64,000 nucleotides of DNA from an uncultured Chloroflexia bacterium (GTDB lineage Bacteria > Chloroflexota > Limnocylindria > Limnocylindrales > CSP1-4), in contig CAWJDE010000008.1 in NCBI GenBank assembly GCA_963841545.1, positions 59,957 to 123,956 of the forward strand. The letters are read 5' to 3'. Both the position numbers and the translations under genes were made by a program. Below the pieces are notes generated by a model. It was not told where the DNA came from, did not search any database, and saw nothing but the letters and a program-made list of their open reading frames with translations. The first letter of the stretch is position 1. The number at the start of each line of letters is the position of its first letter. Positions 28,861 through 49,385 of this stretch are shown piece by piece.

Positions 28861-28861
28861 C

Positions 28862-31520: not shown

Positions 31521-32120
31521 CTACTGGACGATGGACGCGACGGCGCTGTCCATCTCCGACCTTGGCAGCGCGCCGATCCGGATGTCCTTGATCCGGCCGT
31601 CGGCGCCGATGAAGAAATGCGTCGGGATCCCGAGCGTGCGGTAGCTCGATGCGATCGTCTCGCTCTGGTCGACGGCGATGGGGAACGTCAGGCCGGCCCG
31701 CTGGGCATAGGCGCCGATGTCGGCGCTGCTCTCATCGATGAACACGGCCAGCACCACCAGGCCCTGGTCGCGGTAGGCCTCGTACGCGGCCTCCACGTCG
31801 GGCGCCTCGGTCCGGCAGTCGGGACACCACGACGCGCCGAACGTCAGCCATACGGGCTTGCCCGCGTAGTCGGCCAGCGAGACCGTCGTGCCGTCCCACG
31901 TCTTCGCGGTGAAGTCGGGCGGCATCGCCCCGACCGCCGGCGCGGCGCCGGCGACGTTGCCGGTGAGATTGACGGCGGTCACGCCGTCGTCCGTGCCGGG
32001 ACCCGAGATGACCCACGCCAGCGCCCCGATCACGATCGCCGTCACGCCGATGACCGCGATCGTCTGGACCCGGCTCGCCCCGCCGCGGGCGGGCCGCGCC
32101 GTCATGCCTGCAGCGCCCAT
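31521..32120 (-). CDS. resA: ResA/TlpA thiol-disulfide oxidoreductase
   Basis: TM anchor, GKPVWLTFGASWCPDC, GIPTHFFI. Confidence 0.9.
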   Translation of the reverse strand: MGAAGMTARPARGGASRVQTIAVIGVTAIVIGALAWVISGPGTDDGVTAVNLTGNVAGAAPAVGAMPPDFTAKTWDGTTVSLADYAGKPVWLTFGASWCPDCRTEAPDVEAAYEAYRDQGLVVLAVFIDESSADIGAYAQRAGLTFPIAVDQSETIASSYRTLGIPTHFFIGADGRIKDIRIGALPRSEMDSAVASIVQ

Positions 32121-33222: not shown

Positions 33223-33235
33223 GACCCGTACTCCC

Positions 33236-34705
33236 TCAGGCCCGCACGGGCGCCTGGAGCGCCGCGCGGACGTCACTGACCAGCTTGTCGAAATCGGTTC
33301 CCAGCGCCGCCTCGCGGCTGCCGAGGCTCGCCATCGCGAGCACCGCGCCGTCCCTGGCGCGTGGTGTGATCCGTGCCCACACGCGCTTGTGCGGGAGCAT
33401 GAAGCGGAGGGCGAAGCCACCGAACAGGAGGGCGCCACCCAGCCAGACCAGCAGCACGCCGGGATCACGTGCGACGTTGAGCCCGGTGAACTTGCTCTCA
33501 CGCTCGAAGGTGACCGTCAGGTCGCCGACGGTCGAGGCCGTGCCCTGGTCGAGCACCTGCTGCGCGACCTGCTGCCCCGAGTCCGCGGCGTACAGCTCGA
33601 GCTCCATCTGGCCGGGCTTGATCGTGGTGTCGCCGTTGCCGAGCGTTCCGACGACCCAGCCGACGTAGTTCGTGCCGGGGATGTTGAACGAGCCGATCGG
33701 CCGGTTGTCGTTGGTCGTGCGCCAGGCCAGCGGCACGCCCTCCGACACCAGCGTGTTGCCGCCGGCGTCGGCCACGGTCATCACCGCCGCCGAGCCGAAG
33801 AAGGCCTGGTAGAAGGTCGTGTCGCCGTACGTCAAGGGGTCGTTGACCCGGATCGTGTGGCGCGCCACCTCGGTGCCGTCCTTGTACAGGACGACCTGGC
33901 TTGCGTAGTCCTCGGGCGCCCCGGTGGTGGCGTAGTACGTGTCGGTGAAGTCGATCAGCTGGATCGACAGCCCGGGCTCGGACCCGACCGGGAGCGTGTT
34001 GCCCTCGGCGATGGTGAAGCTCGAGTTCCGGTAGCCGAAGGTCGCGCCGATGATGACGCCCGCCAGGATCACCACCAGCGCCACATGGCCGATGAGGCCG
34101 GCGAACAGCACCCAGCGGAACCGGTCGGCGTAGACGTGCACCGTCCCGTCGTCCGTCGACAGGGTGCGGTACCGGCGGTGACGAAGCACGCCCGCCACGA
34201 TCGCGAGCGTCTCGGCCGGGGTGTGCCGGACGACGATCGCCTCGTGCTGCGGGGCATGCTCGAAGAACGCGGATCCCACGTCGAGCCGGGGCTTGGTGAT
34301 CGTCCGCCAGACGCCCGGTGTGCGGTGGATGGAGCAGGCGATCAGGCTGATCGTGAGCGCCGCCATCAGGATCCGGAAGGCCACCGAGCTGAACACCTGG
34401 AACAGCTGGAGCGAGTCCAGGATCCCGGTGAAGGCGCCGTACTTGGGGCGGACCTCGGCCAGCCAGTCGGCCTTCGCCTGGGCGTCGTCGAGCACGCCGG
34501 CCGGCGCCTGGATGATCAGGGAGCCCGCAACGCCAAGGACGGCCAGGGCGAGGATCAGGACCATCGCCAGGCGCATCGACGTCAGGAAGTGCCAGAGGCC
34601 CTCGAGACCCTGGTCGACGCGATCCATCGGTCCCGGCTTGGCGGCCACCCGGGCGGCGGGGGCCGCCGCCGGGGACATCTGGCGGGAGCCAGCCTCGTGG
34701 GTCAT
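33236..34705 (-). CDS. resB: Cytochrome c biogenesis protein ResB/Ccs1
   Basis: FLTSMRLA, SLIACS..R, IGH, IRVNDPL...FYQ, ARDPG. Confidence 0.92.
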   Translation of the reverse strand: MTHEAGSRQMSPAAAPAARVAAKPGPMDRVDQGLEGLWHFLTSMRLAMVLILALAVLGVAGSLIIQAPAGVLDDAQAKADWLAEVRPKYGAFTGILDSLQLFQVFSSVAFRILMAALTISLIACSIHRTPGVWRTITKPRLDVGSAFFEHAPQHEAIVVRHTPAETLAIVAGVLRHRRYRTLSTDDGTVHVYADRFRWVLFAGLIGHVALVVILAGVIIGATFGYRNSSFTIAEGNTLPVGSEPGLSIQLIDFTDTYYATTGAPEDYASQVVLYKDGTEVARHTIRVNDPLTYGDTTFYQAFFGSAAVMTVADAGGNTLVSEGVPLAWRTTNDNRPIGSFNIPGTNYVGWVVGTLGNGDTTIKPGQMELELYAADSGQQVAQQVLDQGTASTVGDLTVTFERESKFTGLNVARDPGVLLVWLGGALLFGGFALRFMLPHKRVWARITPRARDGAVLAMASLGSREAALGTDFDKLVSDVRAALQAPVRA

Positions 34706-34718
34706 GTCCGACGACCTC

Positions 34719-35505
34719 CTACAGACCGAAGGGCGACCCGATCGTCGCCAGGCGGCCGAGCGTGTTGGTGAACATCAGCACGCCGACCGTCACGAGCAGG
34801 CTGCCCGTGGCCAGGGAGACGACGTGGTGGTGGCGGCCGACCCACGTCAGACGTCGTGAGACCCACGACGCCCCGAGGGCGACAGCCAGGAACGGAACGG
34901 CGAGGCCCGCCGCGTACGCGATCAGCAGCACGGTGCCCTGGACGACGCTCGCGGTGGCCGTGGCCAGCGCCAGGATCCCGCCCAGGATGGGTCCGATGCA
35001 CGGGCTCCAGCCGGCCGCGAACAGCGATCCGAACACGAGCGACCGGCCGTACGAGGGCGAGCCGCCGGGCGAGCCAACGATGCTGCTGCCTCGCGACAGG
35101 CCGCCCAGACCGGGTCCGCCGGCTGCGACGAGCGTGCCGCCCATGGCGGGCATCATCCGGGTGTCACGCCACAGCGCACGGACGTTGATCACGCCCGCGA
35201 CCTGGAGCCCGAGAAACACCAGCAGGGCGCCGCCGGCCATCGTCAGCAGCCGCTTGTGATCGGCGAGCACGTAGCCCACCGCCCCGATCGAGGCCCAGAA
35301 GGTCACGAACACGAGCGAGAACCCGATCGTGAACGCGAGGCCGTGGAGGAAGGCGGCGCGCCGGCCGGCCGCTGCCGTCGCCGGTCGCGCCGACCATGTA
35401 GCTCAGGTACGCCGGCACGAGCGGCAGGCAGCACGGGGACGCGAACGACACGACGCCGCCGGTGAAGGCGATGCCGAGGCCGAGCGCGCTGCCCAGGTCG
35501 CTCAT
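34719..35505 (-). CDS. ccdA: CcdA/DsbD transmembrane disulfide transporter (apparent frameshift about 35360-35385)
   Basis: SFASPCCLPLVPAYL in one frame, GWSPCIGPILG in another; length 787 nt = 3n+1. Confidence 0.85.
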
Positions 35506-36782
35506 GGCTGGACGCTCCCTGCCGGGGATGCGGCGGGCGCCGGGGACGCGACCGGGGATGCGGCGGGGGACGCGGCGGGGGACGCGGCCGGCGAGCCCGC
35601 GGGCGCGGCGCTCGCCGCAGCCGTGGCGGCAGGCGAGGTGGCCGGCAGCATCGAGGACGCGGCCAGCTGGTCGAGGTGCTGCTGGACGAGCTGAGCGAGG
35701 TTGGTGGTCGAGTCGATCTCGACGACCCTCGCCCATTCGCGCTGGACGCCGTCCCAGTCGGGCGTCGGCAGGCTCAGGTACAGGAAGCCGAGGTCGTAAT
35801 GGACCTCCTGGTTGTCCGGCTCGATGTCGACGACCTGCTTCCAGGTCGCCTCGGCCGACGTGTAGTCGTTGAGGTCGTAGCTGACCGCGCCACGGGCGAG
35901 CAGGGCCTGCACGTTGTTCGGATCGATCGCCAGCAGCTTGTCGAGCCAGCCGGCGGCGCTCTGGTACTCCTCGCCCGCGTAGAACTCGTTTGCGAGGGCG
36001 AGCAGGGTGGCGGTGTCGTTGGGGTCGGCCGCGTACTGCTGCATGAGGCTGTTGACCTTGTCCTGGTCGATCGCCGGCGCCGTGGCAGCGGCCTGGTCGG
36101 AGGTGCCGTCCGTCGCGGCCGCGTTGCCGTTGACGACCGTGTACCCGGCAAGCGCGATGCCGGCCACCGCGACCAGCCCGACCACGCCGAACGCGATCCG
36201 CTTCCAGATCGCGTCGCCGCTCCGGGTGGAGGCGGTCGCCGTTGCCGGAGCCGGCGCCGGGACGGCTGCCTTCGCGGCATGTCCGGTGGCTGCCGGCCTC
36301 GCCGTGCGCCGCCCCCGGGGGACGTCGGGTGCCATGTCCGCGTGGGCGCTGGGCGTCACGAGGGCGTACAGCGCGTCGAGGTCGGCGGCCGAGTCGTCGC
36401 TCTCGACCGCGGCGAGGACCACGTCCTCGTCGTCGTCGAGCGGCTCGATCGCATCGGTGATGGCTGCCGGGGCGTGATCCCGGCGGGCCGGAGGTGTCGC
36501 CGGCCCGCCGGGTACGACCGTCGGCGGCCTCGTCGGGCTCCTGAGGGCTGAGCCCTCGAGACCGACCGGGTCGGTAAGTTGGAGGTACGCCGCATCGAGC
36601 GACCTCGCCTGGGCGTGGGCCCAGCCTCGGAGGCTCGCGGGCGCAGCCGCGAGGTAGTCGCTCACGGCTTCGTGCAGATCGTCGATGTCCTCGGGCGAGG
36701 CGCTGGGGGGCAGGCCGAGCTGCGCGAGCAGCTCGTTCTCCACCGCGGCCCGGCCCGTGGAGGGGAGCACTCGCGCGTTCAT
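35502..36782 (-). CDS. Membrane-anchored TPR protein with J-domain-like N-terminus
   Basis: LGLPPSASPEDI...LDAAYLQLTDP; central TM; TPR-like repeats (DPNDT, DPNNV, EPDNQ); ASPA repeats. Confidence 0.8.
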   Translation of the reverse strand: MNARVLPSTGRAAVENELLAQLGLPPSASPEDIDDLHEAVSDYLAAAPASLRGWAHAQARSLDAAYLQLTDPVGLEGSALRSPTRPPTVVPGGPATPPARRDHAPAAITDAIEPLDDDEDVVLAAVESDDSAADLDALYALVTPSAHADMAPDVPRGRRTARPAATGHAAKAAVPAPAPATATASTRSGDAIWKRIAFGVVGLVAVAGIALAGYTVVNGNAAATDGTSDQAAATAPAIDQDKVNSLMQQYAADPNDTATLLALANEFYAGEEYQSAAGWLDKLLAIDPNNVQALLARGAVSYDLNDYTSAEATWKQVVDIEPDNQEVHYDLGFLYLSLPTPDWDGVQREWARVVEIDSTTNLAQLVQQHLDQLAASSMLPATSPAATAAASAAPAGSPAASPAASPAASPVASPAPAASPAGSVQP

Positions 36783-37060: not shown

Positions 37061-39520
37061 CTACGGAGCCGCCGCGTAGACGTAGCCGTTGTGCGGCTTG
37101 CCGTGGCAGGTCAGGGTGCAGGTCCCCAGGGTGGTCGAGGTCGCGGGCACGAACGACAGCGTTCCGTTGTAGGGCTGCACGTCGGGGGCGAAGTTGACCA
37201 GGCCCGGGGCGGGCGTCTGGCCGCCCACCGCCAGCACATCGCTGTGGATCCGGAAGTGGCACTCGGCACAGGTCGCATTGCCCTGGCCGTCGCCGGCAAC
37301 GTCGATGTCGCGGGCTCCGGTGCCGTTGTAGCCGATGTCGTTCAGGTGGAAGCCGTGCCAGTTGAAGTTGGTGTCGTACCGCGGGTCGCCGCTGTCGTCG
37401 ACCATCGGCGCCTCCGCGTGACACACGTAGCACAGCGAGAAGTCGGTCGCGGCATACGTCTCGTTCGCGGCCAGGAGGTCCCGGTCCCGGTACGGAGCGA
37501 TCAGGAGCCCGCGGTTCGGGCTGGCGTGGTCGTCGAGCGCGGCGTCGGCAGCGGGCGGGCTGGCGGGGTTGGCCAGGGCCGGGTTGCCATGGCAGTTGGT
37601 GCAGCGGATCGTGGATGTCGTGTCGAACGACCACAGCTTGGCGGGCGAGGTGCCCGACAGGCTGAGCGCCATCGCATTCGTCTGGTTCCGGCCCGCCGCC
37701 TCGATCGGGTGGTACGAGACGTTGGCAGGATTGAGCTCCACCGCCTTGTCCAGCGCCCATCCGCTCGGGTGGGCCGGGTCCTGCGCCGGCAGCTCCGTGA
37801 AGCTCGAGTGGCACTTGAAGCACAGCTGGTACTCCAGCGCCGAGGTCTTCTGGAGCGTGTACGTGGGCGCGGTTCCGGCCGCACCGTTGGTCACCGCCAC
37901 GCCCGGCGCTCCCGAGATCGCCCCCGAGGCCGTCCAGCCACCCGTCGTCTCGACCGGCCGGGTCGCGCTGCTCGCGTGCGGCTGGTGGCAGTCGGCACAT
38001 TGGGCGTGACGATTGAGCACCCCCTCGAACTCGTCGTCGCCGGACGAGGTATGCGAGGACGGCTCGGTGGCCGGGTGCTGGTAGTAGGCGGACGTCGCCG
38101 GGACGTTGGCGGGCGCGGACGTGAACTGCGCCTGGATGTTGCCGCTTGCGCCCGAGCCGTCGTGACACTTGAAGCACAGGGAGGCCATCGATGACTCGCC
38201 CAGCAGCAGCGGGCCCTGGGCCGCATGGGTCGTGTGGCAGGCCGCGCACGTGTCCGAGGTGATCGAGGTCGTCATGTGCGGGCTGGTGAAGGCGAGCGGC
38301 GACATCGTGGTGGCTGCCGTACCCGTGGTCACCCGGAGCCCGACGAGCGCCCCGCCGGTCGAGGTGGTCGTCGACGCGGTGCCGGTCACGCCGCCGCCCG
38401 CCGCCAGCGGGTAGAGCGGCAGGGCATCGGGCGTCTTCTTGCCTTGCCGCTGTCCGGGCGACAGCTCGACCAGCGGCTTCGCTCCCATCGTGATCAGCGC
38501 CGGACCCGTGTCCGGCAGCGCGGCGGTGCCGTCGACCAGGCGGAACCGGTAGCTCGCCCACCATGCGGCGTCGACCGTCGCACGCACGGCGAACTCGACC
38601 TCGGTGAAGCTGTGGGCCGGCAGGTCGATCGAGGCGACCGGGTTCTGGCCGGCACTGGACTCGCCGGGCACGGCCGCCGCCGTCGGATCGTCGCTGGCTG
38701 CGAGCCGCAGCCCGGCGGTGTCGATCGTGGCCCTGCGAGCCTTGAACACCTTGCCGTCATCAGCCGCGGCGTAGAAGGGCTCGCCGACGACCGGGTCGAC
38801 CTGCGGGACCGGGGCCCAGCTGCCGTCCGCGCCGGCAACCTGGAGCTCGGGCTTGACCGTCGCATCGGCATCCGCGTCGTTCACGAGCTGGAAGCGGACC
38901 TCGTACACCGTGAACCGCTGGGCGTCCTCGAGCGCCTGGTCGAGGTCGCCGCGGGCCACGACGGTGCCGTGGGTGTTGAGCGTCTCGACCCACGCATGAT
39001 CGACGTGCGGCCCGGCCGGCATCGGGCTGACGGAGGGCAAGGGCTCGGCCGACGGATCAGTCGACGGCTCGGCCGACGGATCAGTCGACGGCTCGGCCGA
39101 TGCGGACGGTTCGGGCGAAGCCGACGGTTCAGGCGACGTGCCCGGATCAGGGCTCGAGCCGGGGCCGGTGCTCTCGGTGGGCTCCGGCGTCGCGGGCGGG
39201 GACGACGGGGAAGGCGATGCGGGCTCGGCCGACGGCGACGGCGCGGGCGCGGGCGACGGGGAAGGCGATGCGGGCTCCGACGGGGCGGGCGTCGGCGGGG
39301 GCGCCGGTGTCGCCGTGGGCGCGGGCGTCGGCGGGGGCGGGGGCGTCGCCGTGGGCGCGGGCGTGGCGTCGGGGGACGGCTCGGCCGATTCCGACGGCGC
39401 GGCCGACGGGTCCAGCGCGCGCGCCGCCGGGATGACCGGCGAGACTGCGCCGAGCATGCCGGTCACGACCAGGACCACCCCGAAGAGGGGTCCGGCGCGG
39501 CGGGTGAAGGGCCGGTTCAT
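37061..39520 (-). CDS. Secreted octaheme cytochrome c with Pro/Ser/Thr-rich stalk
   Basis: Signal peptide; long P/S/T/A/E linker; CAACH, CFKCH, CADCH, CFKCH, CTNCH, CYVCH, CAECH, CTLTCH (CX3CH). Confidence 0.9.
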   Translation of the reverse strand: MNRPFTRRAGPLFGVVLVVTGMLGAVSPVIPAARALDPSAAPSESAEPSPDATPAPTATPPPPPTPAPTATPAPPPTPAPSEPASPSPSPAPAPSPSAEPASPSPSSPPATPEPTESTGPGSSPDPGTSPEPSASPEPSASAEPSTDPSAEPSTDPSAEPLPSVSPMPAGPHVDHAWVETLNTHGTVVARGDLDQALEDAQRFTVYEVRFQLVNDADADATVKPELQVAGADGSWAPVPQVDPVVGEPFYAAADDGKVFKARRATIDTAGLRLAASDDPTAAAVPGESSAGQNPVASIDLPAHSFTEVEFAVRATVDAAWWASYRFRLVDGTAALPDTGPALITMGAKPLVELSPGQRQGKKTPDALPLYPLAAGGGVTGTASTTTSTGGALVGLRVTTGTAATTMSPLAFTSPHMTTSITSDTCAACHTTHAAQGPLLLGESSMASLCFKCHDGSGASGNIQAQFTSAPANVPATSAYYQHPATEPSSHTSSGDDEFEGVLNRHAQCADCHQPHASSATRPVETTGGWTASGAISGAPGVAVTNGAAGTAPTYTLQKTSALEYQLCFKCHSSFTELPAQDPAHPSGWALDKAVELNPANVSYHPIEAAGRNQTNAMALSLSGTSPAKLWSFDTTSTIRCTNCHGNPALANPASPPAADAALDDHASPNRGLLIAPYRDRDLLAANETYAATDFSLCYVCHAEAPMVDDSGDPRYDTNFNWHGFHLNDIGYNGTGARDIDVAGDGQGNATCAECHFRIHSDVLAVGGQTPAPGLVNFAPDVQPYNGTLSFVPATSTTLGTCTLTCHGKPHNGYVYAAAP

Positions 39521-39572: not shown

Positions 39573-40853
39573 TCAGGGAGTGACCACGTTGGTGAACGGG
39601 ACCGTGCCCGTGGGGTCGTGACAGGCCTGGCAGGTGCCACGGTTGTCGATCTTGAGCAGGCGGCTGGACGCGGACGTCGTCCCGTCCGGGTAGGGGTAGT
39701 CGGCCGAGAACGACGTCGATCCATCGCCGGCCATCAAGGCGTTGGAGCCATGGGCCACGTGGCACTGCGTGCACTCGTTCTGGCCGACGTCGTGGCGGTA
39801 CCGGAAGATCGGGTCGCCGGTGTCGGTCTGCGCGCCGGTCACCTGGTCGTAGCGGGTGTGGCAGGCGCTGCACCAGGCCGTGATCTGGGCCCGGTAGGAG
39901 GTCAGGTTCGCACCGCCGGGCACGTACATCGGCTTGTCGCCGAACGAGCCCGAGGCCGGGGTGGCGGCGGTGCCGTTCCAGCCCGGGACGCCGTCCCAGG
40001 GCAGGTAGCGGCGCCAGTAGTCGCCCGCGGTGGGATCGGCCGTGCCACCCGTGTAGGTGCCGGCGAGGACATCGGCCAGGGTGCGGCCCCACTGCACCGT
40101 GTAGTTGCGGGTGCCGCTCGCGTCGCTGCCGGTGGGCAGCGCGGCGTCGGTGACGGTCGCGTCCGTTCCGGCCTCGACCATCGCGCCCGTCCCGTCACCC
40201 GGGATCGGGTTGAGGATGCGGTACTGGCCGTTGCCGTGCGGGTTGTGGCAGCTGGCGCAGGTGAGGTCGACGCTCGCGCCGACGCCCGAGCCCGTGCCGC
40301 CGTTGCCCCAGGCGATGCCCGGCGCGGCGGCGAACGTCGCGCCGTCGAGGTGCAGGTGCGCCGATGTCGTCGGCTGGCCCGTATCGAGCACGGGCACCTC
40401 GGCCGAGAACCAGGTCGCGTAAGCGCCGAAGAACAGGCGCGGATACGAGATCCGGCTCGGGTCGCTCGAGTCGATCCGCGCCTCGAGGAACCCACCCGAG
40501 CGCAGGGCACCGGCGAGGACCGCATCGTTGCGACCGCCACCCACGCCCAGCGCGTACTGGACGCCGTCCTCGACGTCGGTGGTGGCGCCGGTCCCGGCCG
40601 CACCGTGGCAGGCCAGGCAGAGCGCTTCCTCGTCGGGTTGGGCGAGCAGGTTCGAACCCTGCCCGGTATGCGCGCGGTGGCAGCCGGCACAGCCGTCGGC
40701 GGACAGCGAGGTCGCGCCCGAGTTGGCGCTGGCCACGTGCGGGCCGCCGTCGGCGAGGACGGGGGCCGCGGCGAGGAACAGCAGGGCGCCCACAGACAGC
40801 GAGACACCGATCGCCGCCCGGATGGCGGCGGGTCCGGTGGCAAGGCGAGTCAT
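39573..40853 (-). CDS. Secreted hexaheme cytochrome c, OmcS-like (paralog B)
   Basis: AGGAG RBS; signal ending VLA-DGGPH; CAGCH, CLACH, CASCH, CSACH, CTQCH, CQACH. Confidence 0.92.
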   Translation of the reverse strand: MTRLATGPAAIRAAIGVSLSVGALLFLAAAPVLADGGPHVASANSGATSLSADGCAGCHRAHTGQGSNLLAQPDEEALCLACHGAAGTGATTDVEDGVQYALGVGGGRNDAVLAGALRSGGFLEARIDSSDPSRISYPRLFFGAYATWFSAEVPVLDTGQPTTSAHLHLDGATFAAAPGIAWGNGGTGSGVGASVDLTCASCHNPHGNGQYRILNPIPGDGTGAMVEAGTDATVTDAALPTGSDASGTRNYTVQWGRTLADVLAGTYTGGTADPTAGDYWRRYLPWDGVPGWNGTAATPASGSFGDKPMYVPGGANLTSYRAQITAWCSACHTRYDQVTGAQTDTGDPIFRYRHDVGQNECTQCHVAHGSNALMAGDGSTSFSADYPYPDGTTSASSRLLKIDNRGTCQACHDPTGTVPFTNVVTP

Positions 40854-40918
40854 CAGCTCACTCCTGGGGCGCATCGTTGCGGTGCTTCGTCGGGGTCACG
40901 GTCATCGGCCTTTGGGGT

Positions 40919-40950
40919 GTGGTGGCCGGGACGAGGTCGCCGGCCACCAC
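40919..40950 (-). terminator. 11-bp perfect stem-loop just downstream of paralog A (terminator or mRNA-stabilising hairpin)
   Basis: GTGGTGGCCGG...CCGGCCACCAC; no U-tract on the coding strand. Confidence 0.55.
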
Positions 40951-40963
40951 GGTTGAGCCCTTG

Positions 40964-42232
40964 CTACGGCACGTACGGGGCCGGAACGGTCCCGGTCGCG
41001 TCGTTGGCAATGATGGTTCCCGTCGGGTCATGGCAGGCCTGGCAGGTTCCACGGTTGTCGATCTTGAGCAGCCGGCTCGAGGCCGACGTGCTCGCATCCG
41101 GATACGGGAAGTCGCTCGAGAACGTGCCGGTCATGGCGGCGTTCGAGCCGTGCGCGACGTGGCAGGTCGTGCAGGCCGTCCGGTTGGTGCCATGGCGGTA
41201 CGTGAAGATCGCGTCCCCGCTGTCCGTCTGCTGCGGGATCGGTGACGTCGTGTTCGCCAGGTAGCGGCTGTGGCACTGTGCGCACCAGGCCGTGATCTGG
41301 GCGTTGAACGTCTGGAGCCCGTTCGGAGCGTCGTTCGAGGTCACGCCGGCGGGCGGCGCGACCGTGTTGTCGACCTGCGGATCCCACGGCACGGTGCGAT
41401 GGAAGTAGTCGCCCATCGCATTCGAGTACCCAGCGAGGCCCTCGACATCGCTCGCGAGGAGCGTGCCGGTGCCGCCCTGGGTCTGGATGACCGTGTAGTT
41501 CCGCGTCTCGCCGGCACCAGGGAGGGCAGCGTCGGTGACGACGGTGTCCACGGTGGCCGCGGCGAAGGTGTCGCCAGTGGTCGTCTCGGGGGTCGGGATC
41601 GGGTTGAGGATGCGGTAGTTGCCGTTCCCATGCGGGTTGTGGCAGCTGGTGCAGGTCATCCCGCTGACCGTGCCGCCGGGGTTGTCGGTCGCGTCAAACG
41701 TCGCGCCCGGTGTCCCCGCGATGTTGCCCCAGGCAACGCCCGTGGCAACGACGCCGCCGGCGCCATCGAGGTCGAGATGGGCCGAGGTCACCGGCGCGCC
41801 GGAGGCGAGCACCGAGACCTTGGTATGGAACGAGACGGCGGTGGCACTGCGCATGTAGCCGATTCGGTACGGATCCGCGGAGTTGATCCGCGCATCCACG
41901 AAGCCGCCATCGCGGAGAGCACCGAGCACGGGCTGCGTGCCCGTCCCGTCATTGGCGAGGGTGTACTGCACGCCACTCTCGACGTCGGTGGTGGCACCGG
42001 TGCCGGCCGCGCCGTGGCACGACAGGCAGAGGGCCTCCTCGTCGGGGGCAGCGAGCAGGTTGGATCCCTGTGCGGTGTGGGCCCGGTGGCAGCCGGCGCA
42101 TCCGTCGGCCGTCAGGGTGCTGACGCCCGAGTTCGCCGAAGCCACGTGGGGTCCACCGTCCGCAAAGACAGGAATCGCGGCAAGGAACAGCCAGAGGCTA
42201 CCGGCTGCTACGAGCAGCATCAGCCTTCTCAA
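40964..42232 (-). CDS. Secreted hexaheme cytochrome c, OmcS-like (paralog A)
   Basis: TTG start after AAAGGAGGTG; signal ending VFA-DGGPH; CAGCH, CLSCH, CTSCH, CAQCH, CTTCH, CQACH. Confidence 0.92.
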   Translation of the reverse strand: MRRLMLLVAAGSLWLFLAAIPVFADGGPHVASANSGVSTLTADGCAGCHRAHTAQGSNLLAAPDEEALCLSCHGAAGTGATTDVESGVQYTLANDGTGTQPVLGALRDGGFVDARINSADPYRIGYMRSATAVSFHTKVSVLASGAPVTSAHLDLDGAGGVVATGVAWGNIAGTPGATFDATDNPGGTVSGMTCTSCHNPHGNGNYRILNPIPTPETTTGDTFAAATVDTVVTDAALPGAGETRNYTVIQTQGGTGTLLASDVEGLAGYSNAMGDYFHRTVPWDPQVDNTVAPPAGVTSNDAPNGLQTFNAQITAWCAQCHSRYLANTTSPIPQQTDSGDAIFTYRHGTNRTACTTCHVAHGSNAAMTGTFSSDFPYPDASTSASSRLLKIDNRGTCQACHDPTGTIIANDATGTVPAPYVP

Positions 42233-42340
42233 ACTGTCCTCACCTCCTTTCTTGCACTGCGGGTTGTGGAATGGGCCGCCCGTTGTCGGCGGCGACTGCA
42301 GGATTCGGGCCTCACCTCCCCTCTCGCTTCGTGTTGGGCT

Positions 42341-43426
42341 CTAGTAGCTCCAGACCTGGACCCGATCGTTCGCGGAGTCGGTCACGTAGATCCGCCCGCG
42401 GCCGTCGACGGCCAGGCCGTTGGGAAACTCGAACTGTCCGTTGCCGACGCCCTGCTCGCCGAACGAGCCGAGGAAGTCGATGTGGTCGGCGCCGGGCTCC
42501 AGGGTCGCGTAGACGAACACGGCCTGGCCGCTGGAGTCGGCGACGTACACCTGGTTGCGCCCGTCGACCACGATCCCGCGCGGGAGGCCGAGGTCGCCCT
42601 CGCCCACGCCGCGGCCGATCTGGGCGGCGATGTTGCCGTCGCCGTCGAACACGAGCAGCCGGCCGTTGTTGCCGTCGGTCACGTACACGTTGCCCGCGGC
42701 GTCGACGGCAACGCCGTTGGGGAACGACAGGCCGGCGTCGGCACCGATCGTCCGCACCAGCGCACCCGACGGGTCGAACTCGAGCACCTTCTGGGGGTTG
42801 GCCCCGACGTCGGTGACGAACAGGTCGCCCGTCGCGTCGAACGCGATGCCGAGCGGCTGCCAGCCCGGGACGCCGTCGGGGCTGAACTGGCGCAGGTAGC
42901 TGCCGTCGGCGTCGTACACGTAGATCGATCCGGTCGGCCGGTCGGTCACGAAGACCTCGGACGTCACCGGGTTGAAGGCGACGTAGACGGGCACGTGGTC
43001 GGTGCCGGTCGAGACCGGCGGCTGCATCTGGCCCAGCTCGTTGCCGGAGCCGTCCATCACGCGTGCGATCTTGTCGCCCTCGGTCTGGCCGACCCACAGC
43101 CGGTCGCCGGCACCGTTGACGGCGACGCCCATCGGGCGGTCGACGCCGTAGGCCGCCGTGACGTAGCCCGGCATCACGACCCGGCCCGGGACGGTGGGCA
43201 GGGGGATCGGCTGGCGGAACAGGAGGTACCAGATCGCGAGCGCGAACAGACCGAGCAGCGCCCCGAACAGCAGCAGGAGCAGGAGCACCTTGCGCCGGCG
43301 ACGATCGGGCGGCTGCTCCTCTTCGGTTCCCGTCGGGGGGACGGAGACGTCGGGCGGAAGCTCGTCCGCCTGGGGCCCGGGCTGCGTGCCGGGGATGGGC
43401 TGGGCAACGGCGGGGGACGCGCTCAT
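42341..43426 (-). CDS. Membrane-anchored NHL-repeat beta-propeller protein
   Basis: N-terminal TM; six repeats such as FPNGVAVD.AGNVYVTD..N.R. Confidence 0.9.
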   Translation of the reverse strand: MSASPAVAQPIPGTQPGPQADELPPDVSVPPTGTEEEQPPDRRRRKVLLLLLLFGALLGLFALAIWYLLFRQPIPLPTVPGRVVMPGYVTAAYGVDRPMGVAVNGAGDRLWVGQTEGDKIARVMDGSGNELGQMQPPVSTGTDHVPVYVAFNPVTSEVFVTDRPTGSIYVYDADGSYLRQFSPDGVPGWQPLGIAFDATGDLFVTDVGANPQKVLEFDPSGALVRTIGADAGLSFPNGVAVDAAGNVYVTDGNNGRLLVFDGDGNIAAQIGRGVGEGDLGLPRGIVVDGRNQVYVADSSGQAVFVYATLEPGADHIDFLGSFGEQGVGNGQFEFPNGLAVDGRGRIYVTDSANDRVQVWSY

Positions 43427-44406
43427 CAGTTGCTCCCTTCGGTCGGCACGGACGGAGCGGCGGACGATGCGGGTGCGCCGGTCCGGCTCAGGCCGAGCTT
43501 CGCGGACGTGCTGTCGGGATCGAGGGCGACGGCCTTCGCGTACCAGCTGCCGGCGGTCGCCGGGTCGCCGCGCGTCTCCGCCACCAGCCCGAGCCCGATG
43601 TCCACCTGGACCATCGCCGCGGTGTCGGTGGACTGGATCGCCTGCAGCCGGGCGTCGGCGCCGTCGACATCGCCGTCGGCGAGATCGCCCATCGCCGACG
43701 CCCATTCGGCGAGCGCCGGCTTGCCGGCCGCCGTGTAGGCCTCGGCCAGCGTGCGGTAGGGCTCGGCCCAGCCGATCGGGACGAACTCGACGGCGCGGCT
43801 CAGGGCCTCGATCGCCTTGTCGGTGTCACCGGTCTTGACGAACGCGGCGCCGATCAGGTTCATCGCATCGGCGTCGGTGCGGTTGATGCCCAGGGCCTTG
43901 GTCAGGTTGTCGATCGCATCCTGGGGCCGGTCCTGCTGGAGGGCGATCGAGCCCAGCCCGTAGTACGCGGCCTCGAGCGCGGGGTCGACGTTCGCCATCT
44001 CCGTGTCCACGAGCAGCCCGACGACCTTCTCGTAGTCGGCCTTGGCCGCGTCGAGCTGGCCGCTGAGCAGGTACGCCCGCCCGCGGCTCGCGTACCCCTC
44101 CTTGTCGGCCTTGCCGGTCCCGATGATCTCGGTGTACTGGGCGATCGCGTCGTCGTAGCGCTGGGCGGCCAGGTAGACGTCGGCCAGCCGGCCACGCGAG
44201 GCAACGTCGGACGGGTCGCTTCGGACGGCGTCCTCGAGGGCCGCCAGCTCGCGATCGACGATGGGGGCGGCCGGCGCGCGGAAGCGGTCGACGGCGTAGA
44301 ACGCGACGAATGCGATGACGCCCACCAGCAGCAGCAGCGCGACCCGCCGGATCCAGCGGTTGAGCTGTGCTTCGGGCATCTCGGCCAGGGACGTGACCCG
44401 GAACAT
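43426..44406 (-). CDS. Membrane-anchored TPR protein
   Basis: N-terminal TM followed by multiple TPR-like helix pairs; start approximate. Confidence 0.85.
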   Translation of the reverse strand: MFRVTSLAEMPEAQLNRWIRRVALLLLVGVIAFVAFYAVDRFRAPAAPIVDRELAALEDAVRSDPSDVASRGRLADVYLAAQRYDDAIAQYTEIIGTGKADKEGYASRGRAYLLSGQLDAAKADYEKVVGLLVDTEMANVDPALEAAYYGLGSIALQQDRPQDAIDNLTKALGINRTDADAMNLIGAAFVKTGDTDKAIEALSRAVEFVPIGWAEPYRTLAEAYTAAGKPALAEWASAMGDLADGDVDGADARLQAIQSTDTAAMVQVDIGLGLVAETRGDPATAGSWYAKAVALDPDSTSAKLGLSRTGAPASSAAPSVPTEGSN

Positions 44407-44510
44407 GGATGGCACCTTCACTCCACGGTCGGCGGAATTGGACGAACCGACCTGTGGCAATGCTCACGCGCGCGTAGGGGTGGTGCCCATCCGTCGGGGG
44501 ATAGAGTTGC

Positions 44511-44642: not shown

Positions 44643-45134
44643 CTAGGGCACCGACTCCCGCGGCGTGGCGAAGTTGGACGGGACGTCCACCTCGATCCCG
44701 TTGCCCACCAGCCGCAGCGGCAGGCGGTCGAGCGCCCGGGGAGGAGGGCCGTGCAGCACGGATCCGTCGAGCGCGAAGGCGCCGTCGTGGCAGTGGCACG
44801 TGAACTGACCGTCGGCCGCGGACCACGAGTAGGCGCACAGCGCGTGGGTGCAGCGCGGATCGAAGGCCACGATGTCACCGTTGTCCTGGCGGACGAGCCA
44901 CGTCGATCCCGCGACCGTGGTGCTCCCCTCGGTCAGCGTGAACGGGACCTCGGTCGGGATCCCGACCTCGAGCGTGGTCGGGTCGACGTCGAGCCGGACG
45001 GGGATCGGCGGGCCCGCGCACCCCTGGAGGAGCGCCCCGAGGCCGCCACCCGCGGCCAGCGCGCCGGCACCCATCAGGATCAGCACGCGGCGGCGAGGCA
45101 CGGGCGCGGCGAGCGGGTCGGAGCGATCGGCCAT
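44643..45134 (-). CDS. Rieske [2Fe-2S] protein, Tat lipoprotein-like
   Basis: PRRRVL...LLQGC; CTHALC, CHCHDG, GPPP. Confidence 0.88.
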   Translation of the reverse strand: MADRSDPLAAPVPRRRVLILMGAGALAAGGGLGALLQGCAGPPIPVRLDVDPTTLEVGIPTEVPFTLTEGSTTVAGSTWLVRQDNGDIVAFDPRCTHALCAYSWSAADGQFTCHCHDGAFALDGSVLHGPPPRALDRLPLRLVGNGIEVDVPSNFATPRESVP

Positions 45135-45147
45135 GGTGGGCCGAAGC

Positions 45148-45648
45148 CTAGCCCGGAATGACCACCGGCTGCAGGCGCTCCACGTCCGGACGGCCATCCT
45201 CGTTCGTGCGGGCGCCGACCGCGGCGCGGATCGCCGCCAGGAACTCGTCGGGCCGGGACGAGAGCGTCTCGCGTCGAAGCGTCCAGGCGCTGGACGTCGT
45301 GATGTCCACGTCGAGCACGAGCGCGCAGCGTGATCGCCGGACGATATCGGCGGCATCGATGGCGCCGCCCTCCTCGACCACGATCACGGCCGGCTCGCGG
45401 GCGAGCGCGGCCGCCACGGCCTCCGGCTGGGTGATGTCGACGGCGTCCACGACCACGCCCGGCTCGTCCGCGAGCATGCGGCCCAGCCCCTCGCCCAGCA
45501 GGGCGTGGCTGTACAGCACCAGGATCTGTGCCGGCTGCGATGACACCAGGAAGGCTCCCACCCCACGACGCACGACGGGCGGCATCGGGGCGCCCGTGCG
45601 GCCGATGCTAGGGGCCGGGGGCGGTGCGTCCAATCCGTCGCCCGGCAC
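45148..45648 (-). CDS. Hypothetical protein, degenerate receiver-like domain
   Basis: ILVLYSHALLGEGLGRML...PAVIVVE...EFLAAIR resembles a REC fold; start uncertain. Confidence 0.6.
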   Translation of the reverse strand: MPGDGLDAPPPAPSIGRTGAPMPPVVRRGVGAFLVSSQPAQILVLYSHALLGEGLGRMLADEPGVVVDAVDITQPEAVAAALAREPAVIVVEEGGAIDAADIVRRSRCALVLDVDITTSSAWTLRRETLSSRPDEFLAAIRAAVGARTNEDGRPDVERLQPVVIPG

Positions 45649-45692: not shown

Positions 45693-46385
45693 TCAGTCGG
45701 TCGCTGCCTCGGGCGCCCTCAGGCCCTTTCGCACGGCGTAGGCGGCGGCCTGGACGCGGTTCGTCAGGTGGAGCTTCTCGAGCGAGTTGTGGACGTGGTT
45801 CTTCACGGTGCCCTCGGTGATCGACAGCTCGTTCGCGATCTCCTTGTTGGACAGCCCGTTCGCCACCAGCTCGAGGATCTCCGATTCGCGCCGGGTCAGG
45901 GTGTTGTCCTCGGCGGGCATCGCGCCCGGACCACGTCCCGGAAACCCGCCGGTTCGGAGCGCATTCAGGAGCTTGGACGCGACGGCCGGCGAGATCGGTG
46001 CCTCGCCACGCATCACCCCCCGAAGGTCCTCGAACAGCTGCTCCGGCCGGACGTTCTTGAGGAGATACCCGTTCGCGCCGGCCTTGATCGACTCGAACAG
46101 GTCATCGTCGTCCTCGGACACGGTGAGCATCACGATCGGCGTCGCGAAGCCGGCGGCACGAATGGCCGATACGCCGTCCACCCCCGTCGCGCCCGGCATG
46201 TTGACGTCCATCACGACCAGGTCCGGCTGGAGGGCGCGCACCTTGTCCAGCGCGTCACGCCCGTTCTCCCCCTCACCCACGACGACCATGTCGAACTGGT
46301 TGCCGATCAGCGTCGCCAGCGCCCTGCGGAACAGTGGCTGGTCATCGACGAGCAGCACCCGGAGCTTGGGTGGAAGGTGTCCCAC
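45693..46385 (-). CDS. NarL/LuxR family response regulator
   Basis: VLLVDD, DLVVMDVNMP, GANGYLLK, LTRRE...GLSNKEIA...TVKNH. Confidence 0.93.
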   Translation of the reverse strand: MGHLPPKLRVLLVDDQPLFRRALATLIGNQFDMVVVGEGENGRDALDKVRALQPDLVVMDVNMPGATGVDGVSAIRAAGFATPIVMLTVSEDDDDLFESIKAGANGYLLKNVRPEQLFEDLRGVMRGEAPISPAVASKLLNALRTGGFPGRGPGAMPAEDNTLTRRESEILELVANGLSNKEIANELSITEGTVKNHVHNSLEKLHLTNRVQAAAYAVRKGLRAPEAATD

Positions 46386-48153
46386 GCGTCTCCTCAGCCT
46401 CGAGCCGGACGACGATCTTCGTCCCGTCTCCCGGGGCAGTATGCACGGAGATCGTGCCACCGACCTGTTCCACCCGCTCGCGCATCGAGGCGAGCCCGAA
46501 GCCACCCTCCATCGACCCCGCGACGGTCGCCGGGTCGAAGCCGACGCCGTTGTCCTCGATCGTGAGCGTGGTCACCGGACCGTCGCACTCGATCCGCACG
46601 GACGCGCGGGTGGCGCGCGAGTGCTTGCGGGTGTTGGTGAGCGCTTCCTGGACCACCCGCAGCAGCTGGACCTCCGCGCGCGGCGTCAGCCCGCGGCGCG
46701 TGTCGCCGTCGCACGTGAACGCGGCGGCGATCCCGGTCTGGCGGCTGTACTTGCGCAGGTACTCGCGCAGCGAGCCCTCCAGCCCGCCGTCCTCGCGGAC
46801 GGTCTCCCGGAGGCCGAGGATCGCCTCGCGCACGTCCTGGTACGCCTCGTCCGCCGTCTCGGCGAGCTTCGAGAGCTCGCCCGCCATCGTGTGGCTCGCC
46901 TCGTCCACGGCGCGGGACTCGAGCGCCCGGAGCTGGAGGTGGATGACGCCCAGGACCTGGGCGAGGCTGTCGTGGAGCTCGCGCGCGATCCGGTCGCGCT
47001 CGGCATGGATCGTCCACTGCTCCTCGGCCTCGTGCAGCCGGGCCGTCCGCACGGCGATCGCGGCCATGTCGGCGAGGGCGCCCAGGAGGTGGCGCTCGGC
47101 GGGGCTGAACGGGTGCCCCGAGCGCACGACGCACAGCTCGCCCAGGACGCCGTCGGGGCCGCGCAGCGGCCGCGATGCCCAGCTCGCGGTCTCGTGGCCG
47201 GTCACCAGCGGGCACGTGGGGTTCGGGGCGTGGTGGGCACCCCTGGCAGCATGGGCCACGTGGCACACGCTGCCGTCGTCGGCCATCGCCAGCCGGTCGC
47301 GCACCGCCGATGCCTTGCCCTCGGCCTCCCTCGGATCGGACAGGCAGGCGACCGCCCGCTCCGCGCCCAGCAGGTCCCGTGCATGCCCCGTGATCGTGTC
47401 CAGCACGTCGCCCAGGTCGCCGCGACCGGTGAGCTGCAGCGCGACCTCGTACAGCGCCTCCCGCTCCCGCTCCCGGCGGTGCAGGTCGGCGAGCGTCCGG
47501 CCGAGCTGGGCGGCACCCGCGATCTCGCCCGCGATGTCGACGAACGCGGCGTCCGAGATGTCGGGCTCGACCGGCGGGTGGAAGACGAGGCGCACGTGGC
47601 CGAGCCGCTCGAGGCCGCGGATGAGGGCGAGATCGAGGATGCCGGTGTCGACCCCCATCCGGCGGCTGTAGCGCGGCGCGTCGAGCGCGGGGTCGGCGGG
47701 CTCGGCGAGGATCGGGCCCAGCCAGCCGAGGCCCGGCGCCAGCACGGCCGGCCGCCGGATGGTGAGCGGTGCTCCGTCGGCGGTCGAGATCGAGACCACG
47801 CCGGCGAGGGCGCCGGTCTGGGTGATCACGCGATCGAGCGCCTGCTCCAGCAGGTCGGGCAGCGACAGGCCCCCGCGGACCGCCGAGCTCACCGCGTGGG
47901 TGACGGTCAGGTCCTTGTTCTGGGCGACGAGCTGCTTCTGCGTCCGGTCGAGGTAGACCGAGACCACCGTGGCAAACGCCACGATCGCCGCACCCATGAT
48001 CATCGCCGAGGCGACGTGCCCTTCGTCGCCGGTGAGGCGCGGATCGAGCACCAGGAAGCGGACCAGCTCGAACACCCAGACGAAGACGACGGGCAGCACC
48101 ATCGTCGCCCACTTGAGCCGGTTGAGATCACGGACTTGCTGGGGACCGCTCAT
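46342..48153 (-). CDS. NarX-type (HisKA_3) sensor kinase with GAF domains
   Basis: Two N-terminal TMs; ERDRIARELHDSLAQ, QEALTNTRKH, DNGVGF, GFGLASMRER. Confidence 0.92.
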   Translation of the reverse strand: MSGPQQVRDLNRLKWATMVLPVVFVWVFELVRFLVLDPRLTGDEGHVASAMIMGAAIVAFATVVSVYLDRTQKQLVAQNKDLTVTHAVSSAVRGGLSLPDLLEQALDRVITQTGALAGVVSISTADGAPLTIRRPAVLAPGLGWLGPILAEPADPALDAPRYSRRMGVDTGILDLALIRGLERLGHVRLVFHPPVEPDISDAAFVDIAGEIAGAAQLGRTLADLHRREREREALYEVALQLTGRGDLGDVLDTITGHARDLLGAERAVACLSDPREAEGKASAVRDRLAMADDGSVCHVAHAARGAHHAPNPTCPLVTGHETASWASRPLRGPDGVLGELCVVRSGHPFSPAERHLLGALADMAAIAVRTARLHEAEEQWTIHAERDRIARELHDSLAQVLGVIHLQLRALESRAVDEASHTMAGELSKLAETADEAYQDVREAILGLRETVREDGGLEGSLREYLRKYSRQTGIAAAFTCDGDTRRGLTPRAEVQLLRVVQEALTNTRKHSRATRASVRIECDGPVTTLTIEDNGVGFDPATVAGSMEGGFGLASMRERVEQVGGTISVHTAPGDGTKIVVRLEAEETRGTPSTQAPGAARR

Positions 48154-48314
48154 GCCTACGACTGTGCCGTTCGATACATGCGCGCGCGAAGGGCCGATCG
48201 GCCCGTGCAGCGGGGGACCGACCGGCCTGCATCCGGGCCTCGTTCCATGCGGAGCGTCCAGCGACCGAGCCGTCAAGCGCGCGATCGCACGATCGACGCT
48301 CGGGGCGGGGACGC

Positions 48315-49385
48315 TCAGCCCGAGGCGGCGTGGGACCCGGCGGCCTCCGGACCGGGCCGCTGGGAGCCCTTCGGGCGGAGCTGGACGAACTCGAACCCGA
48401 ACCGACCCTTGACGCACAGGTGGCCGTGGGTGACCGAGGACTCCGAGGGCGAGGTCACCTTCACGATCTCGTCGTCCTGCGTGTGGAGCGTCAGCGTGCA
48501 GCCGACGCCGCAGTAGGGGCAGATCGTGTCGGTGGTCTGCTGCGTCTCGGGCCGCCACCCGCCGGATGCCCGCAGCTCGTGCTCGGAGCGGAACATGAGG
48601 GCGCCGGTGGGGCATACGCCGATGCAGTTGCCGCAGAACACGCAGGCCGATTCGGGCAACGGGGTGTCGAACTCGGTCGAGATCCGGGCGTCGAAGCCCC
48701 GGCCGGCGACCGCGATCGCGAACGTGTTCTGGGCGTCCTCGCCACACGCCTCGACGCACTTGTAGCAGAGGATGCAGCGCGCGTAGTCACGGACGTAGAG
48801 GTCGTTGTCGACCTTGACCGGCTGGGCCACCGTCTCGGCTGCGGCGCCCGGATCAGCGGCCGGCTCGCGGTGCTCGCCCGGCGTCCGGGCATCCCGCTCG
48901 CCGGCGGCGGCCCCGCGGGCGGCGGGCCCGAACCGGGCGGGGGTGGCGCCATACTGCGCCGCGTACCTCGCCAGGTCACCGTCGGGCACCGTCGGTCCGG
49001 CCAGCGACAGGTCCACCGACGACCCCAGCAGCTCGAGCACGAGCCGCCGCGAGTGCCGCACGCGCTCGCTGTCGGTCCGGACCTCCATGCCCGCCTCGAC
49101 CCGCCGCGAGCAGGCGGGCGCCAGGGCACGCGACCCGGCCACCTCGACCACGCACACGCGACAGACGTTGACCGGGGTCAGGCCCTCGAGGTAGCAAAGG
49201 GTCGGCGTGTCGATCCCCGCCGAGCGCGCCGCCTCGAGGATCGTGGACCCGGCGGGAACGGTGACGGCGGCGCCGTCGATGCTCAGGGTGACCGGCTCCA
49301 CCACCGGCGCCGGTGGGGCGCTGGGCGGGCGGCTCGGTCGCGCCGGCGGCTCGGTGAGGATCCGGCCGATGTCGGGAGCGGTCAT
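48315..49385 (-). CDS. Formate dehydrogenase Fe-S subunit (NuoG/FdsA N-terminal module)
   Basis: 2Fe-2S PTLC...CRVCVV...C; CILCYKC..AC; CVFCGNC..VCP; TICPYCGVGC...LCVKGRFG. Confidence 0.9.
   Translation of the reverse strand: MTAPDIGRILTEPPARPSRPPSAPPAPVVEPVTLSIDGAAVTVPAGSTILEAARSAGIDTPTLCYLEGLTPVNVCRVCVVEVAGSRALAPACSRRVEAGMEVRTDSERVRHSRRLVLELLGSSVDLSLAGPTVPDGDLARYAAQYGATPARFGPAARGAAAGERDARTPGEHREPAADPGAAAETVAQPVKVDNDLYVRDYARCILCYKCVEACGEDAQNTFAIAVAGRGFDARISTEFDTPLPESACVFCGNCIGVCPTGALMFRSEHELRASGGWRPETQQTTDTICPYCGVGCTLTLHTQDDEIVKVTSPSESSVTHGHLCVKGRFGFEFVQLRPKGSQRPGPEAAGSHAASG

Follow-up and report, generated by a model that had tools for sequence, protein, structure and literature searches.

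To our knowledge, OmcS-type nanowires are known experimentally only from Geobacter, and for bacteria without an outer membrane we know only of a homology model, that of CwcA. In the OmcS filament, one haem is completed by a histidine from the adjacent subunit (PMC9473688; PMC7911101). CwcA (TherJR_1122/Tfer_0075) is a hexahaem protein of the Gram-positive genus Thermincola, for which a location in the peptidoglycan was proposed and which shares 18% identity with OmcS. With 6EF8 as the template, it was modelled as a polymer stacked through the peptidoglycan, in which haem 5 is completed by a histidine of the next subunit. The recombinant protein was obtained in insoluble form only, and the authors took this as a sign that it tends to polymerise (PMC7911101). 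Here, a 64,000-nucleotide stretch of DNA from an uncultured Chloroflexia bacterium (the window; contig CAWJDE010000008.1 of assembly GCA_963841545.1, positions 59,957 to 123,956 of the forward strand) was analysed, in which two neighbouring genes code for hexahaem c-type cytochromes. A first reading of the sequence (the original prediction) had described them as tandem OmcS/OmcT-like cytochromes, candidates for polymerising nanowire subunits in an unexpected lineage. According to the present analysis, the two proteins are credible candidates for the subunits of a filament or cell-wall wire, which would probably stack head to tail, and we give this reading a probability of about 60%.

The two genes are located next to each other:

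40964..42232, minus strand: paralogue 1, OmcS/CwcA-like hexahaem c-type cytochrome, 422 amino acids, TTG start
39573..40874, minus strand: paralogue 2, OmcS/CwcA-like hexahaem c-type cytochrome, 433 amino acids, ATG start

The open reading frames (ORFs) are separated by 89 nt. The G+C content of the window is 70-75%, and the third-position GC of the two genes (0.87 for paralogue 1 and 0.92 for paralogue 2) matches that of adjacent real genes. The proteins share 56% identity over 418 columns (E 1e-141). Both start with a hydrophobic N-terminal Sec-type leader ending with an alanine directly before DGGPH, which comprises residues 1-24 in paralogue 1. Exactly six CXXCH motifs are present in each protein, starting at residues 45, 69, 194, 317, 354, and 397 in paralogue 1 and at residues 62, 86, 206, 335, 368, and 415 in paralogue 2. 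Six further histidines of paralogue 1 are candidates for the distal ligands, namely H29 (GPH), H52 (RAH), H152 (SAH), H201 (NPH), H347 (YRH), and H361 (VAH), and the same six were found in paralogue 2. They are invariant, together with the six CXXCH histidines, across 30 close homologues, and all twelve are conserved to 0.99-1.00 in a 119-row alignment reaching sequences from Actinomycetota and Bacillota. Judged from this conservation, bis-His ligation is predicted to be possible at each of the six haems. The ORFs, leaders, motifs, and shared histidines thus agree with the original prediction, which had described two paralogues of about 420 amino acids with Sec signals, six CXXCH motifs, and enough further histidines for bis-His ligation throughout.

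Both proteins are matched in Pfam by generic multihaem models only (Paired_CXXCH_1, cytochrome c3, and c7). NCBIfam contains no OmcS-type model, and the partial matches found there are all below the threshold. The hexahaem family is far beyond chance, with 1665 matches at E<=0.001 among 8000 scored candidates and 1734 representatives of 50%-identity clusters at the same threshold.

The relationship to OmcS was analysed using a profile of 30 close homologues (A1) and a profile of 34 more diverse members (A2). Searched against the PDB, A1 ranked OmcS (6ef8_A) first of five matches with an E-value of 0.0027, and A2 ranked it first of 17 with an E-value of 2e-6, the domain E-value being 2e-6 for a region spanning haems 3-4. 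A third alignment of 21 rows (A3) represents the family of a hexahaem protein from an alphaproteobacterial metagenome-assembled genome (MAG; locus L076), which itself matches OmcS 6EF8 with an E-value of 1e-27. A3 matches OmcS at 1.9e-52 and covers almost the entire chain, so it can be taken as the OmcS family proper. The comparison of A2 with A3 by hhalign gave a probability of 99.83% and an E-value of 5.5e-30 over 280 columns with 25% identity, and haem motifs 1-6 pair one to one and collinearly. The flanks of the motifs pair as well (CAGCHRAH with CxxCHTMH, WCxxCH with WCxNCH, and CxTCHVAHGS with CxTCHRAHAS), as do CTSCHNPHGNGNYRIL in the window family A2 and CTSCHDPHGNxNFRML in A3. Twelve invariant histidines occur in A3 in the same order as in the window family. 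Among them, the second histidine of CxxCHtmH is aligned with H52 of paralogue 1. It is residue 16 of the OmcS chain, the presumed inter-subunit ligand of the neighbour's haem 5.

The motif order in the chain sequence of 6ef8_A (CEGCHTMH, CLNCH, CSSCHDPHG, WCANCH, CLSCHRAHAS, CNKCH) bears out the order that the original prediction had given for OmcS. The histidine of CXXCHxxH is conserved as H52 and aligned with OmcS position 16, and the profile comparison with OmcS that had been proposed turned out positive (hhalign E 5.5e-30; A2 against the PDB E 2e-6). By profile alignment, both paralogues are true but remote homologues of OmcS, and they are best described as secreted hexahaem c-type cytochromes of the OmcS superfamily with predicted bis-His ligation of all haems.

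A scan with A2, using one genome per species, identified 78 related loci. Most of them belong to Chloroflexota (Limnocylindrales, Anaerolineae, Dehalococcoidia, and Ardenticatenaceae). Further loci are from Actinomycetota, including an Intrasporangium isolate, Solirubrobacterales, Micrococcales, and Coriobacteriia, and a few are from Bacillota, a Thermincola ferriacetica MAG (L079) among them. A look-up in a protein atlas gave an equal phyletic spread, and the source names of the close homologues are Candidatus Limnocylindrales, Chloroflexi RBG-16, and Chloroflexota. On this sampling, most of the clade occurs in phyla that are commonly regarded as monoderm (Chloroflexota, Actinomycetota, and Bacillota). 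The weakest matches of the scan include proteins of diderm-type lineages with OmcS-like N-termini, e.g., L076.

As a side observation, the proteins at L076:7575-8717, L077, and L081 are close OmcS-type hexahaems outside the Desulfuromonadales. The family of the L076 protein comprises 1701 matches at E<=0.001 among 5537 candidates, and its sources include Calditrichaeota, KSB1, and Acidobacteriota.

The hexahaem protein of L079 aligns with paralogue 1 in BLASTP from haem 1 to haem 6 (23% identity, E 5e-12), whereas the alignment of paralogue 1 with the L076 protein (E 2e-13) comprises haems 3-6. The L079 protein is probably CwcA and may be Tfer_0075 itself. Based on these alignments, on the predominance of monoderm-type phyla, and on the TPR-NHL cassette described below, the two paralogues would best be filed in a CwcA-like clade of the OmcS superfamily, and their closest described relative is probably CwcA rather than OmcS or OmcT. 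Since a CwcA polymer has already been proposed (PMC7911101), the idea of an OmcS-like polymer is not new here. The lineage is less unexpected than the original prediction had it, given this precedent and the occurrence of the family in MAGs of Chloroflexota, Actinomycetota, and Bacillota. The finding is therefore not categorically new, as its kind was already proposed for organisms without an outer membrane. A literature search, with subscription journals and supplements outside its scope, found no published description of OmcS/CwcA-type hexahaems in Limnocylindria or Actinomycetota.

The genome to which the window belongs has a size of 4.04 Mb in 13 contigs and is 91.8% complete. Apart from a weak match in the next gene, the two hexahaem copies described here are the only ones in it. 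No match to Omp85 was found in this genome (diderm controls positive in 7 of 14) and none to LpxC (diderm controls positive in 4 of 14). The host cell is probably without a classical outer membrane, and the term outer-membrane cytochrome is not literally applicable because neither Omp85 nor LpxC was matched.

The number of hexahaem copies per locus varies across the 78 loci, with one copy in 51, two in 17, three in eight, four in one, and none in one. Adjacent hexahaem pairs were also found in four further genomes of the window's class. The tandem layout had been likened to that of omcS and omcT, which are adjacent in Geobacter. It is not specific evidence of such a relationship, with two to four tandem copies in 26 of the 78 loci. 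Because tandem copies arise repeatedly in the clade, the duplication in the window seems to be independent of that of omcS/omcT.

The self-association of paralogue 1 was analysed by predicting a homodimer from two copies of residues 25-410 with an own alignment (A4) and four haems. The interaction prediction score from aligned errors (ipSAE) was 0.64, 0.63, and 0.64 over the runs, compared with 0.00 for the best of three controls. In a benchmark, the mark was reached by 20 of 30 solved same-chain pairs but by only one of 23 solved single chains. At least 94% of the contacts agree between the runs, and the predicted local distance difference test (pLDDT) score of the partner does not fall below 87. 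In the predicted interface, which is asymmetric, copy 1 presents its C-terminal face (118-123, 324-347, 369-378, and 391-407, including the haem-6 motif), and copy 2 contributes the N-terminal arm (28-60, with the haem-1 motif and H52) as well as residues 201-203. Many of the lowest-error pairs contain H52. Open-ended stacking needs two different faces touching each other, and so the asymmetric interface fits it. The homo-oligomer prediction with haems that had been proposed in the original prediction thus yields, as far as a model of two subunits can tell, a head-to-tail interface around H52.

The interface positions are also more conserved. Cysteines and histidines excluded, the conservation is 0.546 at 63 interface positions and 0.412 at the 297 other positions of the mature chain, and none of 10000 permutations reaches the observed value. 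In addition, the ligand arithmetic is that of OmcS-family proteins, since twelve conserved histidines are available for six haems and their order is shared. Both polymerisation and conductivity are inferences only. Once exported by the Sec route and fitted with haem by ResBC/CcdA, the subunits would stack head to tail, and the haem 4/5/6 face of each would receive the N-terminal arm (haem 1 and H52) of its neighbour. There, H52 would provide the missing axial ligand for haem 5 and haem 6 would abut haem 1', so that a continuous haem chain could be formed. Electrons might then pass from membrane quinol-oxidising cytochromes through the cell wall and be handed to a multihaem protein at the surface, or reach minerals or humics directly, with membrane-anchored tetratricopeptide repeat (TPR) and NHL proteins as putative assembly or anchoring factors.

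Long forms of the family were also scanned. Natural tandem fusions of two hexahaem modules, which would have favoured a head-to-tail arrangement, were not found among the 34 long forms, 31 of which are single modules with large loop insertions and three of which combine a module with other haem domains. The 31 members (within P0126-P0260) have lengths of 560-870 amino acids and a single hexahaem-type module, 27 of them with six CXXCH and four with two to five. Their insertions of 100-250 amino acids occur at two fixed places, between haems 3-4 and between haems 4-5, as would be expected of loops decorating the outside of a conserved haem core. In the other three (L025:7923-9986, L035:7893-10202, and L057:8001-11135), the module is fused C-terminally to multihaem domains, giving 12, 15, and 13 CXXCH in total.

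Several results weigh against the wire reading. OmcS was absent at E<=10 from a single-sequence phmmer search of all PDB chains. A monomer prediction by AlphaFold2 from 30 close homologues reached a pLDDT of only 41.3 and was not used; with 119 diverse rows, the pLDDT was 90.7 and the predicted template modelling score (pTM) 0.90. A Foldseek search of the latter model against the PDB yielded no match at E<=0.001, the best E-value being 1.6, and the PDB chains listed did not include OmcS. Similarity to OmcS is significant at the profile level (E 5.5e-30) and was not recovered in this structural search. Foldseek is poorly suited to this model because about 71% of the mature chain is non-regular structure by a count of the DSSP string, with about 14% helix and about 15% strand. 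The family is patchy in the window's class, being present in 10 of 121 sampled genomes (G000 counted) and in 8 of 35 genomes of the same family. The homodimer was supplied with only four of its twelve haems and with its own alignment, and its score could reflect a memory of the solved OmcS filament. A pass in this prediction indicates likeness and not binding. The haem-5 motif (residues 354-358) lies outside the named interface, and the interface is close to haem motifs, which would be conserved regardless. Finally, the physiological role of the Geobacter cytochrome filaments themselves is disputed (PMC11077965), and no filament is known for any member of the clade, CwcA having been obtained in insoluble form and modelled only (PMC7911101).

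Several of these points also suit a reading in which the family and the gene island are the same but the hexahaems, as monomers or small oligomers, relay electrons across the wall zone from the membrane decahaems to the surface multihaem protein, with H52 ligating a haem of its own chain. The clade lacks an experimental filament, Foldseek did not retrieve the OmcS filament subunit, the four-haem dimer prediction may echo OmcS, and the identity to OmcS-type proteins is only about 25%. The fusions of the module to further multihaem domains in L025, L035, and L057 (12-15 CXXCH) suit a relay too. However, the family keeps twelve conserved histidines for six haems in the order of the OmcS family, in which a haem is completed by a histidine of the adjacent subunit (PMC9473688). 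Furthermore, the predicted interface is asymmetric, head to tail, centred on H52, and ahead of all three controls, its positions are more conserved than the rest, and recombinant CwcA was insoluble, which was read by its authors as a polymerising tendency (PMC7911101). We regard non-polymerising relays as possible, but not as likely.

Upstream of the candidate wire subunits, two further genes of the minus strand encode putative assembly factors:

42341..43426, minus strand: membrane-anchored NHL-repeat beta-propeller, hydrophobic helix at residues 138-164 of the long ORF
43426..44460, minus strand: N-terminally anchored TPR protein, weak similarity to the CcmH/CycH TPR domain

The long NHL ORF, which extends to 43705, is probably called too long, and the gene most likely begins with the ATG at 43426. 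This ATG shares one base with the TGA of the TPR gene (TGATG, 43424-43428) and is closely preceded by a GGGAG. This stop/start overlap and the upstream GGGAG suggest that the putative assembly factors TPR and NHL are translationally coupled. Among the 78 related loci, 65 contain a homologue of the NHL protein, and of the 59 loci with at least 4 kb of upstream sequence, 55 do. The NHL gene precedes the hexahaem gene in the same orientation in 58 of the 65, at a median distance of 264 nt. TPR homologues were found in 62 of the 78 loci. In the diderm-type loci L076 and L077, no NHL homologue was detected by tblastn.

In Geobacter, the NHL protein GSU2505 adjoins omcS, and it was suggested to be needed for the assembly or expression of OmcS (PMC9070056). 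NHL, TPR, and CcsAB genes were also described alongside a multihaem electron-uptake cluster of Tenderiales (bioRxiv 10.1101/2022.05.06.490989). The presence of NHL and TPR across most loci and beside these clusters indicates that the TPR-NHL-hexahaem cassette is a conserved core. Tentatively, it could be an ancient dedicated wire-building machine, shared by OmcS of diderm metal reducers and a much larger, as yet undescribed radiation in Chloroflexota, Actinomycetota, and Bacillota, although we consider this rather a speculation than the likely case. If true, many uncultured soil and sediment bacteria of these phyla, the Limnocylindria-like host included, would thread a polymeric haem wire through their wall, and the factor that assembles or anchors OmcS-type filaments, long sought, would have been found in the NHL propeller.

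Every gene from about 48.8 kb down to 26.2 kb is located on the minus strand, and the layout looks like one or a few operons. Apart from the genes named above, this island of about 22 kb comprises System II maturation, Rieske/cytochrome b, two ten-CXXCH proteins, an eight-haem-motif protein, and a two-component regulator:

46342-48759, minus strand: GAF/HisKA_3 histidine kinase
45693-46505, minus strand: LuxR-type response regulator
45148-45648, minus strand: small ORF
44643-45356, minus strand: second Rieske protein, beside the TPR gene and 15 kb from the first Rieske gene
37061..39520, minus strand: multihaem cytochrome with 7 CXXCH and 1 CX3CH; leader present; Pro/Thr/Ser/Ala-rich, low-complexity linker (about 150 amino acids)
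35502..36782, minus strand: second membrane-anchored TPR protein, CcmH/CycH-like TPR (E 1.1e-5)
34719-35312, minus strand: CcdA-like, System II maturation
33236-34705, minus strand: ResB, System II maturation
32149-33501, minus strand: ResC/CcsA, System II maturation
31521-32120, minus strand: ResA-like thioredoxin, System II maturation
29661-31094, minus strand: NapC/NirT-like protein with 10 CXXCH
28862-29521, minus strand: Rieske protein
27787-28860, minus strand: cytochrome b
26220-27797, minus strand: 10-CXXCH cytochrome with a C-terminal hydrophobic helix

The cytochrome gene at 37061-39520 probably starts with the ATG at 39520, 52 nt past the stop of paralogue 2. Its product matches MtrC/MtrF domains II/IV (E 3.6e-10), and homologues are present in 36 of the 78 related loci. 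With its leader and linker, it looks like a candidate surface-displayed terminal cytochrome on a stalk. ResB homologues were found in 23 of the 78 loci, and homologues of the kinase and the response regulator, which are probably the regulators of the island, in 32 and 36, respectively.

By gene content, the region 26220-31094 would represent a membrane electron-input module. Its set of NapC/NirT-like protein, Rieske protein, cytochrome b, and ten-CXXCH cytochrome, together with the second Rieske protein, is an unusual membrane module, which may be a bc-type complex wired to multihaem cytochromes. Beyond the island, a NuoF-like flavoprotein fused to a 2Fe-2S thioredoxin-like domain (49382-51352, minus strand) and a molybdopterin oxidoreductase (57480-59150, minus strand) are encoded, which may provide an electron input of the formate dehydrogenase or hydrogenase type.

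Short DNA pieces identical to the locus were found in two soil DNA runs of one study. Furthermore, two sediment RNA-library runs of another study contain contigs that are 90-95% alike to parts of both hexahaem genes, e.g., a contig of 659 nt with 33 differences over 41593-42251. These contigs are from relatives, contigs are no measure of transcription, and the libraries possibly contain DNA, so that they give no more than a hint of expression of the hexahaem genes; uncovered parts of the locus carry no information. In two sediment RNA-library runs (X4 and X7), very short contigs with a word depth of up to about 518 were observed over 39573-42252. They sit on the most conserved parts, the leader/DGGPH region and the haem-3 motif, and probably pool many related organisms.

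The content of the island also bears on the direction of electron flow. In a lithotrophic electron uptake, extracellular Fe(II), Mn(II), or reduced humics would feed electrons to Rieske/cytochrome b, and the hexahaems would conduct them inwards. Such a reversal affects the direction of flow alone, and the subunits could polymerise all the same. The two Rieske proteins and the cytochrome b of the island fit such an uptake, as bc-type complexes typically mark the entry of electrons from high-potential donors, be it uphill or downhill. However, the island also contains a NapC/NirT-like cytochrome, and this family usually acts as a quinol dehydrogenase feeding outward chains. The identical DNA pieces come from soil metagenome runs, and soils can be oxic. 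NHL, TPR, and CcsAB genes also occur beside the electron-uptake cluster of Tenderiales (bioRxiv 10.1101/2022.05.06.490989). On the other hand, the characterised relatives OmcS and CwcA are from metal reducers, and an inward flow is considered rather doubtful. Catalytic multihaem enzymes, similar to nitrite, hydroxylamine, or sulfite reductases, are very improbable and this reading was rejected, since the conserved distal histidines at all six haems leave no open haem site, CXXCK or Lys/Tyr-ligand motifs are missing, OmcS is the best PDB relative by profile, and the neighbouring genes are for electron transfer and maturation and not for substrate handling, against which stand only weak partial matches to the NrfH, DmsE, and HmcA models, all far under their cut-offs, and a match of the Thermincola relative, confined to one haem motif, to a chain of an octahaem nitrite reductase (E 0.012).

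Returning to the candidate wire subunits, the window presents the OmcS architecture, its ligand histidines preserved, within an electron-transfer island that is complete and tidy and belongs to a soil Chloroflexota-type genome. The TPR protein, NHL protein, two hexahaems, surface multihaem protein, and System II form a compact and testable gene set for wire assembly and for the crossing of a Gram-positive-type wall, and the NHL propeller is pointed to as the conserved assembly partner. The locus also suggests that abundant soil phyla may perform more extracellular electron transfer than has been counted so far. Of the new points, the most useful are how large the clade is and how widely it is spread over phyla, the TPR-NHL partnership, which is nearly universal and connects the clade to the omcS neighbourhood of Geobacter, and the predicted head-to-tail dimer centred on the conserved CXXCHxxH histidine.

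Among known cytochrome polymers, OmcE shares a sole sequence match with the window family, at the paired-CXXCH motif of 7tfs_A, which we take to be OmcE (E 0.0018, 36 profile positions). OmcE and the archaeal tetrahaem filaments are functional analogues, i.e., cytochrome polymers in which a haem is likewise completed by a histidine of the adjacent subunit, but with a different number of haems (PMC9473688).

OmcS of G. sulfurreducens (PDB 6EF8/6NEF) likewise has about 400 amino acids past the leader, six CXXCH in the same order, twelve conserved histidines, and an NHL-repeat neighbour. The flanks CxxCHxxH, CLxCH, CxSCHxPHG..YR(I/M)L, WCxxCH, CxxCHxAHxS, and the C-terminal CxxCH are common to both, and a head-to-tail self-contact via the N-terminal arm is predicted for the window protein too. 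In contrast, the profile-level identity is only about 25%, to which a single-sequence search is blind. The haem 4-5 region is much shorter, a beta-rich insert lies between haems 2 and 3, and the host of the window proteins is probably without an outer membrane. OmcT (GSU2503) can be likened for the tandem layout of two similar hexahaems, presuming that omcS and omcT are adjacent.

CwcA is likewise a hexahaem protein of a host without an outer membrane, and the CwcA-like locus L079 likewise contains NHL and TPR homologues. Its protein differs from the window proteins by an extra N-terminal region of about 90 amino acids, and its partner cytochromes differ, with no tblastn match in L079 for the two ten-CXXCH proteins of the window. 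In contrast to CwcA, the two paralogues described here come from a high-GC Chloroflexota-type genome.

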